Source of the DNA: a virus
Taxonomy: Duplodnaviria > Heunggongvirae > Uroviricota > Caudoviricetes
Direction: 5' to 3' (one strand)
Virus record (IMG/VR): IMGVR_UViG_3300028585_000002
Span: 15,337-79,336 of that record
Length of the DNA: 64,000 bases
The notes beneath the pieces were generated by a model that was not told the DNA's origin, searched no databases, and saw only the letters and a list, made by a program, of their open reading frames with translations. A program made the translations under genes and the position numbers. Below are positions 7,426 to 10,874 of the stretch, in pieces (positions within the stretch are counted from its first letter, which is position 1; every line of letters begins with the position of its first letter).

Positions 7426-10400
7426 ACATCAATCACGCCCTGTCAGTACGCAGCGACTTCTCCATCGGGCAGTCGCTGCTGCAGGCAGATCACATCATCG
7501 ACGAGGCCAAGAAGCACGGCTACGAGTCGGTCGCCCTGGTGGACGACATGTCGATCCACAACATGGTCGACTTCTCCAACAAGTGCAAGAAGGCCGGCAT
7601 CAAGCCGATCATCGGCTGCCGCCTGCGCGTCGTTGATGATCCGACCTACCGCAAGCCGAGCAAGGCGTCGGGCGAGGCGGAGAAACCGAACCCGCTCGTC
7701 ATGCTCAAGGTGTACGCCGTCGACGAGACCGGCATCCAGAGCCTGCTCAAGCTGCTCACGAAGGCCAACAGCGCCGAATACTTCTACTATCACAGCCGTT
7801 GCGGCTGGAAGGACGTGATGGAGATGAAGGGCGTCGTTGTCACGACCGGCGACTTCTACAACCTGTTTAGCCACCCAGGCCACGAGGACATCATCGGCGA
7901 CCTGGCGCACCGGTTCGAACACTTCTACTGCGAGCTGACGCCGATCAACACGCCGCTGTTCGACACGCTGAACGCAAAGGCGCTCGCGATTGTGCAGGCG
8001 AACCCTGGCATGAAGACCCTCGTCACCTATCCGTTCATGTACCGCGACGACGCCGACGCCGACACGCTGGAGGTGCTGAACGTCATCACGACGCAGAACA
8101 AGATGTCGACCCCTTGGCGCCCGAAGCAGGCAGTCAAGGAGTTCGGCTTCAAGGCCCCGCTCGACATCGGCAAGCGCATGCTCGCCGCCCACAAGCGCGC
8201 CGCCCAGTGGAGCGGCGTGTCCGCGCCCGACCTGTGGAAGCAGGGCCTGGTCAACATCGAGAAGGTCGCGGGCCTGTGCGCCTACGAATTCAAGAAGCAC
8301 CCGGTCTCGCTGCCGCAGATGGCGCCCAACGAGTTCGAAGCGCTTGGCCAGAAGTGCATCGCCGGCTGGAAGAAGCGTTTTGGCCAGGAAGTGCTGGGCC
8401 ACCGCCCGGCCGCCGCCGACATGCCCACGTATCAGGCCCGCCTGAAGTACGAGCTGTCCGTCTTGAAGAAGATGGGCTTTGCCGGCTACTTCCTCCTGGT
8501 CGAGGATCTGGTCATGTGGGCCAAGAACAACGGGATCATCGTCGGCCCTGGCCGGGGTTCCGTGGGCGGCTCGCTGGTCGCGTACCTGATCGGCATCACC
8601 GACGTGGACCCGATCCGCTTCAACCTGCTGTTCGAACGCTTCATCAACCCCGAACGCCTCGACTTGCCCGATGCCGACTTGGACTTCATGTCCACGCGCC
8701 GCCACGAGGTCATCGAGTACCTGACGGCCAAGTATGGCGCCGACCGCGTCGCCGGCATTTCGAACTTCTCGACCCTGGCGTCGGCGTCTGCCCTGCGCGA
8801 CACCGGGCGCGTGTACGAGCTGGACAACCTGGCCCTGTCGGTGACGAAGCTGGTGCCGAAGGAGCATGGCCAATCCATGACCCTGACCAATTCGGCCGAC
8901 GCGGTCGCTGACATCGAAAAGTTCCGCGATGACCACCCCGGCATCTGGGGCCACGCCCTCAAGCTGGAAGGCGTCATGCGTAACTTCGGCCAGCACGCCG
9001 CGGGCACGGTCGTCGCCGGCGAGCCGCTGGTGAACCGCGCCGTCATCGAGACGCGCAGCGATGGCATCCCGGTCACGAATTGGGACAAGCGCGTCGTCGA
9101 GGACTGGGGCCTGGTCAAGATGGACATTCTGGGCCTGTCCACGCTCGACGTGCTGGAGATCGCCCGTAAGTACATCAAGGACCGTCACGGCAAGGACATC
9201 AGCTACGTGAACCTGCCGCTCGAGGAGCCGGACGTGATGGCGGCCTTCGCGCGCGGTGACACGACTGGCGTGTTCCAGTTCGAATCGCCAGGCATGAAGA
9301 AGCTGCTGAAGGACTTGGCCAAGGGCGGCCCGCTCACGTTCGAAGACATTTCGGCTGCCACTGCGCTGTACCGGCCGGGTCCGATGGATTCGGGCATGCT
9401 CGAGGACTTCGTGGCCATCAAGCAGGGTCGCAAGTCGCCGTATTACGAGCACCCGAACATGGAAGCGGCGCTGTCGTCGACAGGTGGCGTGGTCGTGTAC
9501 CAGGAGCAGGTCATGCAGCTGTCCGTCGACCTGGCCGGCTTCACCGGCGCCGAAGCAGACAACCTGCGGAAAGCGATGGGCAAGAAGGACGCCGACAAGA
9601 TGGCGGAAATGCGCGACAAGTGGGTCAAGGGCTGCGAGGACAAGTCGAGCATGGATCCGATGACGGCGGGCCAGCTGTTCGACAAGATCGAGTCGTTCGC
9701 CGGCTACGGCTTCAACAAGTCGCACTCGGTCGAGTATTCCGTGATCTCGGTGTGGACGATGTGGGTGCGCGTGCGCTACCCAGCCGAATACTTCGCTGCC
9801 TGCCTGTCGATCGTCGGCGACGAGAAGCTGACCGGCCTTGTCAACGATGCGCGCAGCTGCGGCATCGAGGTGCTGCCGCCGGACATCAACATGTCCAGCG
9901 ACCGCTTCACGATCCCGGACGACAAGCACCTGCTGGCACCGTTCAGCAAGGTCATGGGCATTTCGGAGAACACCGCGCGCCGCATCGCTGAACTGCGAGA
10001 GCGTAACCGCGACTGGAAGGTGGCGCGCATCAAGAAAAAGCGCGACGGCACGACGGAGGAGGTATGGGAGCCGGATGACACCTGCCCGATCAAGGGCCGC
10101 TTCGACACCATCGACGAGTTCCTGCAGACCGCTGCGCAGCCGGGATCGAAGGTCAATGCCCGCGTGGTGGAGAACCTGCGTCTGGTCGGCGCCCTTGCCG
10201 CGATCGAGCCTGGCGCCAAGCCGGCCCGCGACCTGTCGCGCCGTAAGGACCAGACCGAGCTGATGCCGGGTCTGATCATCGACGCGGTCAAGGCTGACCG
10301 GACCACGGACGTGACGGAACCCTTCGTGAAGGCGAAGATCATTCACATCGTCCAGGACTACCGCGGCTGCCAAGCCTGTGATCTGTCCGGCCAGCCGCAC

Positions 10401-10874
10401 CCGGCGATCCGGATGAAGTCGAACGTCAAGTTCATGGTCGTGTCCGACTGCCCGAACTGGCAAGAGGAGAAGGCCAACAAGCTGATGGAAGGCGACACCG
10501 CTGACTGCGTGAAGACCGCGATCAAGGAAGCGGGAATCGCACCGGGCGACGGGTATTTCACGACTCTGGTGAAGGCCAAAAAGAATGACAAGTTCTTGAC
10601 CAACCAGCAGATGAATGGCTGCGCGCAGTACCTGTCCCGCGAGCTGGACGTGCTGAGGCCGCCGATCATCGTGGCACTGGGCGCCGCGTCGATCAAGCGC
10701 TTCCTGCCTGGTCACAAGGGCGGCACCACGGAGCTGATCGGCAAGGCGATCTACGACGCGAAACTGGACGCAACCATCGTGTGCGGACTGAACCCGCAGC
10801 AGATTTACCACGACCCGGCGAAGCAACTCGTCCTCAACGACGTGTTCGCAAAAGTAGCCGAGATTTTGAGCTAG
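7422..10874 (+). CDS. dnaE: DNA polymerase III alpha subunit (DnaE-type, PHP domain) with a C-terminal uracil-DNA glycosylase family-4-like domain
   Basis: GFAGYFLLVEDLVMWAKNNGIIVGPGRGSVGGSLVAYLIGITDVDPIRFNLLFERFINPERLDLPDADLDF is the canonical Pol III alpha palm motif. The C-terminal ~185 aa (CQACDL...MVVSDCPNWQEE...IVALGAASIKRFL...CGLNPQQIY) parallels family-4 UDG. Confidence 0.9.
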   Translation: MNINHALSVRSDFSIGQSLLQADHIIDEAKKHGYESVALVDDMSIHNMVDFSNKCKKAGIKPIIGCRLRVVDDPTYRKPSKASGEAEKPNPLVMLKVYAVDETGIQSLLKLLTKANSAEYFYYHSRCGWKDVMEMKGVVVTTGDFYNLFSHPGHEDIIGDLAHRFEHFYCELTPINTPLFDTLNAKALAIVQANPGMKTLVTYPFMYRDDADADTLEVLNVITTQNKMSTPWRPKQAVKEFGFKAPLDIGKRMLAAHKRAAQWSGVSAPDLWKQGLVNIEKVAGLCAYEFKKHPVSLPQMAPNEFEALGQKCIAGWKKRFGQEVLGHRPAAADMPTYQARLKYELSVLKKMGFAGYFLLVEDLVMWAKNNGIIVGPGRGSVGGSLVAYLIGITDVDPIRFNLLFERFINPERLDLPDADLDFMSTRRHEVIEYLTAKYGADRVAGISNFSTLASASALRDTGRVYELDNLALSVTKLVPKEHGQSMTLTNSADAVADIEKFRDDHPGIWGHALKLEGVMRNFGQHAAGTVVAGEPLVNRAVIETRSDGIPVTNWDKRVVEDWGLVKMDILGLSTLDVLEIARKYIKDRHGKDISYVNLPLEEPDVMAAFARGDTTGVFQFESPGMKKLLKDLAKGGPLTFEDISAATALYRPGPMDSGMLEDFVAIKQGRKSPYYEHPNMEAALSSTGGVVVYQEQVMQLSVDLAGFTGAEADNLRKAMGKKDADKMAEMRDKWVKGCEDKSSMDPMTAGQLFDKIESFAGYGFNKSHSVEYSVISVWTMWVRVRYPAEYFAACLSIVGDEKLTGLVNDARSCGIEVLPPDINMSSDRFTIPDDKHLLAPFSKVMGISENTARRIAELRERNRDWKVARIKKKRDGTTEEVWEPDDTCPIKGRFDTIDEFLQTAAQPGSKVNARVVENLRLVGALAAIEPGAKPARDLSRRKDQTELMPGLIIDAVKADRTTDVTEPFVKAKIIHIVQDYRGCQACDLSGQPHPAIRMKSNVKFMVVSDCPNWQEEKANKLMEGDTADCVKTAIKEAGIAPGDGYFTTLVKAKKNDKFLTNQQMNGCAQYLSRELDVLRPPIIVALGAASIKRFLPGHKGGTTELIGKAIYDAKLDATIVCGLNPQQIYHDPAKQLVLNDVFAKVAEILS

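Follow-up and report, generated by a model that had tools for sequence, protein, structure and literature searches.

Why should a replicative DNA polymerase end in a domain that resembles a uracil-DNA glycosylase (UDG)? This question is raised by a 64,000-nucleotide stretch of DNA from a tailed virus (Caudoviricetes; IMG/VR record IMGVR_UViG_3300028585_000002, positions 15,337 to 79,336), which is called the window here. An open reading frame (ORF) of the window, 7422..10874 on the plus strand, encodes a DnaE-type polymerase of 1150 amino acids (aa). An earlier interpretation, made from the letters without database searches (the sequence-only reading), had placed a family-4 UDG-like domain with a degenerate catalytic motif at 10314-10874, which corresponds to residues 965-1150 plus the stop codon. 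It had also called the domain likely inactive and had stated that no such DnaE fusion was known. The domain itself is supported by Pfam, NCBIfam, phmmer and AlphaFold2/Foldseek alike: on the structural model, residues ~966-1150 are a complete, diverged UDG fold of the family-4 type. Judged by its sequence relatives, the polymerase adds one more member to a family of DnaE-UDG fusions that is already known and widespread. The practical outcome for the window is a correction, in that the fusion is real and is neither new nor unique.

The polymerase part belongs to the C family. Its score with the NCBIfam model TIGR00594 is 706.5 bits (cut-off 434.35), the DnaE-type domain set of PHP, Pol III alpha core, fingers and (HhH)2 is complete in Pfam, and PHROG 405 spans residues 3-1149 with E=0, taking in the entire fusion. 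The second half of the (HhH)2 domain (892-930) aligns weakly with residues 913-949 of Taq Pol III alpha, an alignment that is not significant alone. The model for the cellular DnaE equivalog, NF004226, scores 741.8 bits against a cut-off of 1002 and is matched over profile positions 9-852 of 1146. Because this match ends at 852, and because no OB-fold family occurs among the Pfam matches at E<=1, the OB and tau-binding domains are concluded to be absent; the proposal that the usual tail of bacterial DnaE had been replaced is borne out. The fraction of G and C at third codon positions (GC3) is 0.89 over the whole ORF, and an identical protein (P0038) is encoded on a metagenomic contig of 111,606 bp. 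An insertion of ~25-30 aa, RNRDWKVARIKKKRDGTTEEVWEPDDTCPIKG, lies within the (HhH)2 domain at residues ~868-895 (window 10023-10107); several close relatives, P0003 and P0005 among them, lack it in the comparison.

The UDG assignment of the tail was examined by profiles and by structural modelling, both of which the sequence-only reading had suggested as checks. Pfam PF03167 (gathering cut-off 24.3 bits) matches residues 1001-1129 with 31.0 bits in the whole protein and the C-terminal fragment with 35.1 bits (E 1.7e-08). The nearest NCBIfam models are those of type-4 UDG and UdgX, with E values from 1e-9 to 1e-12, including 5e-12 and 1e-11 for the type-4 UDG models (NF040953 and TIGR00758). 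All of these scores lie below the curated cut-offs, at 40-45 bits against 125.3 for TIGR00758, 41-46 bits against 250 for NF040953, and 35-40 bits against 189.95 for the UdgX model TIGR03914. In phmmer searches of PDB sequences the best-matching enzymes were the UDGs of Thermotoga maritima (E 1.9e-11), Sulfolobus tokodaii (8.5e-09) and Thermus thermophilus (UDGA, 6e-08). An AlphaFold2 model of residues 927-1150 (pLDDT 87.8, pTM 0.82) found T. maritima UDG (1L9G) as its best Foldseek match, with E 7e-13 and a target-normalised TM score of 0.85; the superposition has a root mean square deviation of 2.3 A over 188 columns and covers 188 of 191 residues. The Foldseek matches ranked 1-36 (E<1e-9) are all family-4 UDG or UdgX structures, and a more distant match is the UDG domain of the A-family polymerase of phage phiLo (9qhs).

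The state of the active site was read from HMMER alignments to solved UDGs together with a MAFFT alignment (Table 1). The motif placements of the sequence-only reading hold throughout. Its CQACDL does lie at the iron-sulfur cysteines, CQAC (983-986) standing opposite CTAC of T. maritima UDG; the catalytic GEGPGxxE is indeed replaced, since VVSDCPNWQEE of the window aligns with FVGEGPGEEED; the core strand is kept, with IIVALGAASI opposite VIVALGATAL; and the HPS/A motif is replaced within CGLNPQQIY, where GLNP faces TYHP of S. tokodaii UDG. The alignments also place TT-LVKAK of the window opposite CN-VVKCR, the canonical context of the third cysteine being VKCRP, so that both the asparagine that reads uracil and the third cysteine are substituted. 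The window domain thus lacks the full family-4 set of four cysteines, GE[AG]PG at motif A, the uracil-reading asparagine and H-P-[SA] at motif B. Whether Tyr1129 might correspond to Tyr170, the DNA-binding residue of S. tokodaii UDG, was considered and rejected, as the alignment pairs Tyr170 with His1130. Of the 120 close homologues, 109 have Phe in the column of His1130, and a conserved aromatic residue there is all that is claimed.

How far these substitutions extend was followed in two distinct sets: a wide alignment of 120 sequences (the window protein and 119 representatives, one per 50%-identity cluster) and a close clade of 120 close homologues of the window protein. In the close clade C983, C986, H993, D1009 and C1067 are each present in 120/120, A1052 in 117 and N1124 in 116/120. 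In the wide alignment, motif A position 2 (D1009) is D in 84, E in 16 and N in 15 sequences, the motif A proline (P1011) is kept in 100/120, and P1125 is Pro in 116/120. The column of the motif B histidine (N1124) holds N in 63, S in 31, T in 14 and H in 9. The uracil-reading Asn column (T1048) is occupied by S (40), A (26), T (21) or G (18) in 105 of the 120 and by N in 10; this loss and variability argue against uracil-specific recognition. All canonical features, namely four cysteines, [GA]E[AS]P[GN], Asn and His-Pro, are retained in eight DnaE-linked representatives (P0265, P0268, P0269, P0270, P0274, P0288, P0289 and P0302), and Pfam UDG scores of 50-90 bits were obtained for the three that were scanned, namely P0265, P0268 and P0270. 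Most other representatives, the window protein included, show a D/x/N-P pattern. Members thus range from those with a canonical UDG domain, presumably active, to those in which it is degenerate, and the window copy is a degenerate derivative. A similar range has been reported for PolA-UDG polymerases (PMC10201439; bioRxiv 10.1101/2025.03.26.645540). The description of the domain as likely inactive remains unproven, given that its substitutions are themselves conserved and its fold is complete; the conservation pattern suggests that the nucleotide-binding pocket and the metal site are still under selection.

Where His993 stands in the window protein, seven residues beyond the CxxC motif, a histidine is found in 44 of the 45 representatives that have Cys1, Cys2 and Cys4 and lack Cys3, and in 0 of the 15 that have all four cysteines. 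This covariation suggests a ligand swap, in which His993 has probably replaced the missing third cysteine and become the fourth metal ligand. As the swap may go back to one ancient event, these counts lack independence; that the histidine has been retained among sequences which often share only 20-50% identity nevertheless argues for selection. The canonical-to-degenerate series and the cysteine-to-histidine covariation are details that go beyond the sequence-only reading. An unlikely extension is that the fold in the window clade has been rebuilt and not just inactivated, with a Cys3His site and an Asp/Thr/Asn pocket that could act as a replicase-coupled reader or glycosylase of a target different from uracil, such as a damaged or modified template base. 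If true, a C-family replicase would thereby possess its own means of reading ahead.

The statement that no such DnaE fusion is known has to be withdrawn. A DnaE variant that occurs in Yersinia pestis as well as Salmonella enterica and in which an archaeal-type UDG (PF03167) replaces the OB and C-terminal domains was described by Timinskas et al. (2014; PMC3919608). For gp048 of Rhizobium phage RHEph10 the GenBank record has the note "uracil-DNA glycosylase-like", PHROG 405 covers the fusion as a whole, and some clusters of the same architecture are labelled "uracil-DNA glycosylase family 4" by JGI. A whole-protein search found more than 120 protein clusters with 63-84% identity to the window DnaE and the same precomputed Pfam architecture; these clusters are found on contigs of ~105-112 kb as well as in Herbaspirillum, Ralstonia, Cupriavidus and other Burkholderiales genomes. 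The search for orthologous fusions in related phages, also proposed at the outset, was positive. By tblastn against phage records the same tail occurs in the DnaE of Pseudomonas phage nickie and its relatives (40-43% identity), of Rhizobium phages (RHEph10), Stenotrophomonas phages and ANB28, and of SSU5-like phage-plasmids of Salmonella, Klebsiella and Escherichia (~27% identity), with weaker matches to PolA-UDG polymerases of the PMBT14 type. A profile search of 1.84 billion representatives returned 514 sequences at E<=1e-30, ~119 of them with a full UDG-like domain after the HhH domain. The DnaE-UDG fusion family is thus large and old. The window protein has no close cultured relative, because megablast of its gene against phage records gave matches of 34-69 bases only.

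The dnaE gene is divided in many relatives, one piece encoding ~789 aa (PHP, core and fingers) and the other ~391 aa (HhH and the UDG-like domain; PHROG 4335), with a gene for a 231-aa HNH endonuclease in between, as at L006:2892-7179 on a JGI contig of 107,641 bp. The HNH gene could belong to a group I intron or encode a free-standing homing endonuclease. The split site corresponds to about residue 740-760 of the window DnaE, the gene of which is uninterrupted. Among the relatives from the profile search, P0263 (1587 aa) contains an intein, with a Pfam Intein_splicing match within its fingers domain. In P0261 (1413 aa) ~370 extra residues break the Pol III core; these give no match to an intein family and may be an intein.

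The nearest described system is the "DnaEX" variant of Timinskas et al. (2014), represented by the DnaE of SSU5-like phage-plasmids (Salmonella phage SSU5 and plasmids of Yersinia and Salmonella), nickie and RHEph10, which has the same order of PHP, Pol3, fingers, (HhH)2 and UDG and likewise no OB or C-terminal domain. The SSU5, nickie and RHEph10 group shares with the window a full-length PHROG 405 match, the motif A Asp and the motif B Asn-Pro, although the UDG domain of the window is only 27-43% identical to those of the isolates. The metal site differs within this assemblage: the CxxC motif and Cys4 are kept in the window clade and in nickie, His993 belongs to the window clade, and SSU5, RHEph10 and ANB28 are without the whole site. 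Stand-alone family-4 UDGs (TM0511, 1L9G; UDGA, 1UI0; S. tokodaii UDG, 4ZBX) and UdgX are the best matches in sequence and structure. They share the CxxC motif, the fourth cysteine, the LG motif of the core strand and the fold with the window domain, and differ in that the window domain has substitutions at motif A, at the Asn, at the third Cys and at the motif-B His.

A UDG fold is also covalently joined to a replicase in the phage PolA-UDG polymerases, of which the SPO1-like and the SP15-like phiLo and YerA41 enzymes are active and the N4-like ones inactive. Their UDG domains are mostly of the family-4 type, type II (MUG-like) in YerA41, and come in canonical and degenerate versions, as in DnaE-UDG. 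Many PolA-UDG models, as well as phiLo 9qhs, resemble the window domain in Foldseek. The roles proposed for them are excision of deoxyuridine (dU) by reading ahead on the template, or a processivity module. The arrangement is different, however: PolA-UDG has an A-family polymerase with the UDG at its N-terminus, whereas the window protein has a C-family polymerase with the UDG at its C-terminus, in the place of the OB and C-terminal domains. Moreover, the inactive N4-like UDG domains carry deletions (PMC10201439), in contrast to the complete domain of the window. In the poxvirus holoenzyme (E9/F8, A20 and the UDG D4/E4) a UDG fold is again integral to the replicase, where it sits on the template in front of the active site; there the UDG is family-1-like, catalytically active, and attached in trans through a bridging protein to a B-family polymerase. 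The UDG fold has therefore been recruited into the replisome with three polymerase families, namely C-family in phages and plasmids, A-family in phages and B-family in the poxvirus holoenzyme. Within the DnaE-UDG family, the passage from canonical to degenerate members provides a natural series in which uracil excision ahead of the fork can be set against a DNA-handling module.

The role that we favour, and to which we give about an even chance, is that of a polymerase-tethered domain that handles template DNA and in which uracil excision has been weakened, altered or lost. The OB domain of cellular DnaE binds single-stranded DNA, and the UDG-like domain would occupy the place of this domain in the chain. 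From there it would keep hold of the template strand, or scan it, beside the polymerase. Efficient uracil excision would probably have been lost or strongly attenuated in the window clade, and the pocket and the metal site, with His993 probably as the replacement ligand, would stay under selection. Processivity proper would come not from the UDG domain but from a beta clamp, most likely that of the host, bound at QTELM just upstream. In phiLo and YerA41 PolA-UDG it is the 5' template strand that the UDG domain reads, and Mpox E4 is equivalent (bioRxiv 10.1101/2025.03.26.645540); inactive UDG domains have been proposed to serve in processivity or as structural elements (PMC3201878; PMC10201439). 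AP (apurinic/apyrimidinic) endonuclease, PolX and ligase partners accompany the active PolA-UDG enzymes, and neither these nor a dUTPase were recognised among the annotated ORFs of the window, which covers 64 of ~111 kb; that the three partners were not recognised there is counted in favour of this role. The sensor or DNA-binding-module roles put forward in the sequence-only reading are plausible and come close to this proposal.

Several points weigh against this role. The Asp at motif A position 2 and the Asn, Ser or Thr in place of the motif-B His are polar and conserved in the alignments. Glycosylases of the MUG type (family 2) work without a motif-B His. The type II (MUG-like) domain of YerA41 excises dU (bioRxiv 10.1101/2025.03.26.645540). 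Taken together, these three points mean that the domain may yet be catalytic. Repair partners or a clamp gene could also lie in the rest of the ~111-kb element, beyond the 64 kb of the window, and the assignment of QTELM as a clamp motif is drawn from resemblance. A glycosylase that is active with an altered catalytic set is the main, though doubtful, rival explanation: the general base or water organiser would be Asp1009, the leaving group would be stabilised by Asn1124, in the manner of MUG, and excision of uracil or of another aberrant or modified base at the fork would be coupled to replication. The constancy of D1009 (120/120) and N1124 (116/120) in the close homologues speaks for it, as do the restriction of the wider family to D/E/N at motif A position 2 and N/S/T/H at motif B, the completeness of the fold (TM 0.85 to T. 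maritima UDG over 188/191 residues), the existence of canonical DnaE-UDG relatives, which shows that glycosylase activity tethered to a C-family polymerase is evidently tolerated, and the dU excision by PolA-UDG fusions, one of them of type II. Yet the Asn that reads the uracil edge has given way to small, variable residues, the motif-B His that is counted as catalytic in phiLo is absent, the family-4 hidden Markov models score 40-45 bits against cut-offs of 125 and 250, and the partners for AP-site repair are unrecognised in the 64-kb window. An abasic site in the template would, moreover, be hazardous for a C-family replicase.

The domain might instead be a protein-protein docking or scaffold module that stands in for the tau-binding domain and tethers the polymerase to the helicase, SSB (single-stranded DNA-binding protein) or exonuclease of the element, its pocket having no role. 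In cellular DnaE the region replaced by the UDG-like domain binds tau, the element has its own helicase, gp32-like SSB and DnaQ-like exonuclease, and in the many relatives where HhH and UDG form a separate polypeptide of ~390 aa this must reassociate with the catalytic part; the complete loss of the metal-site cysteines in several clades (SSU5, RHEph10 and ANB28) points the same way. We nevertheless regard docking as improbable, the best-conserved positions including pocket residues (P1011, Y1045, T1047, K1051, P1125 and D1009) and not being confined to a surface patch. An origin of the fusion in misassembly, frameshift or read-through, or a UDG similarity arising by chance, deserves practically no credence: the same single ORF is present in cultured SSU5, nickie, RHEph10 and ANB28 and in more than 120 independent clusters, the sequence and structure statistics are strong, and GC3 is 0.89 for the ORF as a whole.

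The clamp contact assumed in the favoured template-handling role has a candidate in the linker before the UDG-like domain. The pattern R-x-x-x-Q-x-x-h-h (h, hydrophobic) occurs ~22-26 aa upstream of this domain in at least 70 of 113 representatives, with the consensus R-[LR]-[KR]-D-Q-x-E-L-[ML]-P-G-L. According to the citation in PMC3201878, the internal beta-clamp motif of Escherichia coli alpha is 920-QADMF-924. QTELM of the window has a similar form and is likewise placed after the HhH domain, a likeness that amounts to resemblance only, and it may bind the beta clamp. Should the motif prove real, its partner would probably be the host clamp. A tblastn search with E. coli DnaN gave no significant match in the window, a weak test on 64 of ~111 kb; in the phage collection the same query, again a weak test, matched 321 records, and the 40 of these that were listed include no DnaE-UDG phage.

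Table 1. Features of the dnaE gene, its product and other genes of the window (residue numbers refer to the DnaE protein)
Feature	Coordinates	Strand	Basis or remark
dnaE-type (C-family) polymerase gene with C-terminal UDG-like domain	7422..10874	+	TIGR00594 and PHROG 405
PHP domain, residues 8-145	7443..7856	+	Pfam PF02811, E 6.3e-17
Pol III alpha catalytic core, residues 308-571	8343..9134	+	Pfam PF07733, E 6.5e-81
Fingers domain, residues 574-741	9141..9644	+	Pfam PF17657, E 1.3e-53
(HhH)2 duplex-binding domain, residues 814 to ~930	9861..10211	+	Pfam PF14579 (HHH_6) on 814-866
Conserved linker motif RRKDQTELMPGL, residues 940-951 (QTELM 944-948)	10239..10274	+	Candidate internal beta-clamp-binding motif
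Family-4-like UDG-fold domain, residues 966-1150, at the place of OB and tau-binding domains	10317..10871	+	Profiles, phmmer, AlphaFold2, Foldseek
CQAC, Cys983 and Cys986, first two Fe-S ligand positions kept	10368..10379	+	Aligns with CTAC of T. maritima UDG
His993, candidate substitute fourth metal ligand	10398..10400	+	Covariation with loss of Cys3
Motif A SDCPN, residues 1008-1012, for GE[AG]PG (Glu to Asp1009)	10443..10457	+	Alignments
TLVKA, Thr1048-Ala1052; Thr for the uracil-reading Asn, Ala for the third Fe-S Cys	10563..10577	+	
Cys1067, fourth canonical Fe-S ligand, kept	10620..10622	+	Alignments and close homologues
Motif B GLNP, residues 1122-1125, Asn1124 for the catalytic His	10785..10796	+	Aligns with TYHP of S. 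tokodaii UDG
398-aa protein gene directly 3' of dnaE	10958-12154	+	C-terminal part matches PHROGs 4969 and 1069 (function unknown)
DnaQ-like "DNA polymerase exonuclease subunit"	32496-33062	+	PHROG 192, E 5e-49
TrfA-like replication initiator	40959-42053	-	
ParA	54892-55650	+	
PIN-domain protein	56406-56924	-	
ParB	62514-63182	+	

The element that carries this gene is a phage-plasmid of ~111 kb that belongs to the SSU5/nickie/RHEph10 supergroup. Upstream of dnaE lie CobT-like, CobS-like and sigma-factor-like genes, and downstream those for a gp32-like SSB, FEN, RecA, Mre11/Rad50-like proteins, RuvC, class I RNR (ribonucleotide reductase), ThyX and a MazG-like protein. Farther along the window a DnaQ-like exonuclease, a TrfA-like initiator, ParA, ParB, a PIN protein and a helicase are encoded. 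The gene order round dnaE agrees with that of SSU5, nickie, RHEph10 and ANB28, where CobT/CobS-like genes are likewise followed by dnaE and then by FEN and RecA; an SSB is annotated only in the window and in the metagenomic relative L006 among the compared loci. Because the TrfA-like, ParA, PIN and ParB genes represent plasmid-type maintenance functions, the element is considered a phage-plasmid and not a purely lytic phage. The DnaQ-like gene is separate from dnaE, at a distance of ~22 kb, and proofreading is therefore probably provided in trans.

The 398-aa protein encoded directly 3' of dnaE consists of a long Ala/Pro/Thr-rich N-terminal half of low complexity and a conserved C-terminal part. 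A gene in this position is also present in nickie and in metagenomic relatives, and its product could be a replisome partner. In the module at 25856-26767 and 27140-27784, both on the plus strand, the thymidylate-synthase-like gene has a weak match to Pfam Thy1 (30.6 bits) and a strong one to PHROG 85, and adjoins genes for a MazG-like pyrophosphatase and a putative nucleotide kinase. No tRNAs were found in a scan of the window and no repeats in a scan of its low-GC first 2.3 kb. The GC content falls to ~39-45% at window positions 1-1250 and 1500-2000, against ~60% elsewhere in the window; this low-GC stretch is perhaps intergenic, an origin region or of foreign descent.

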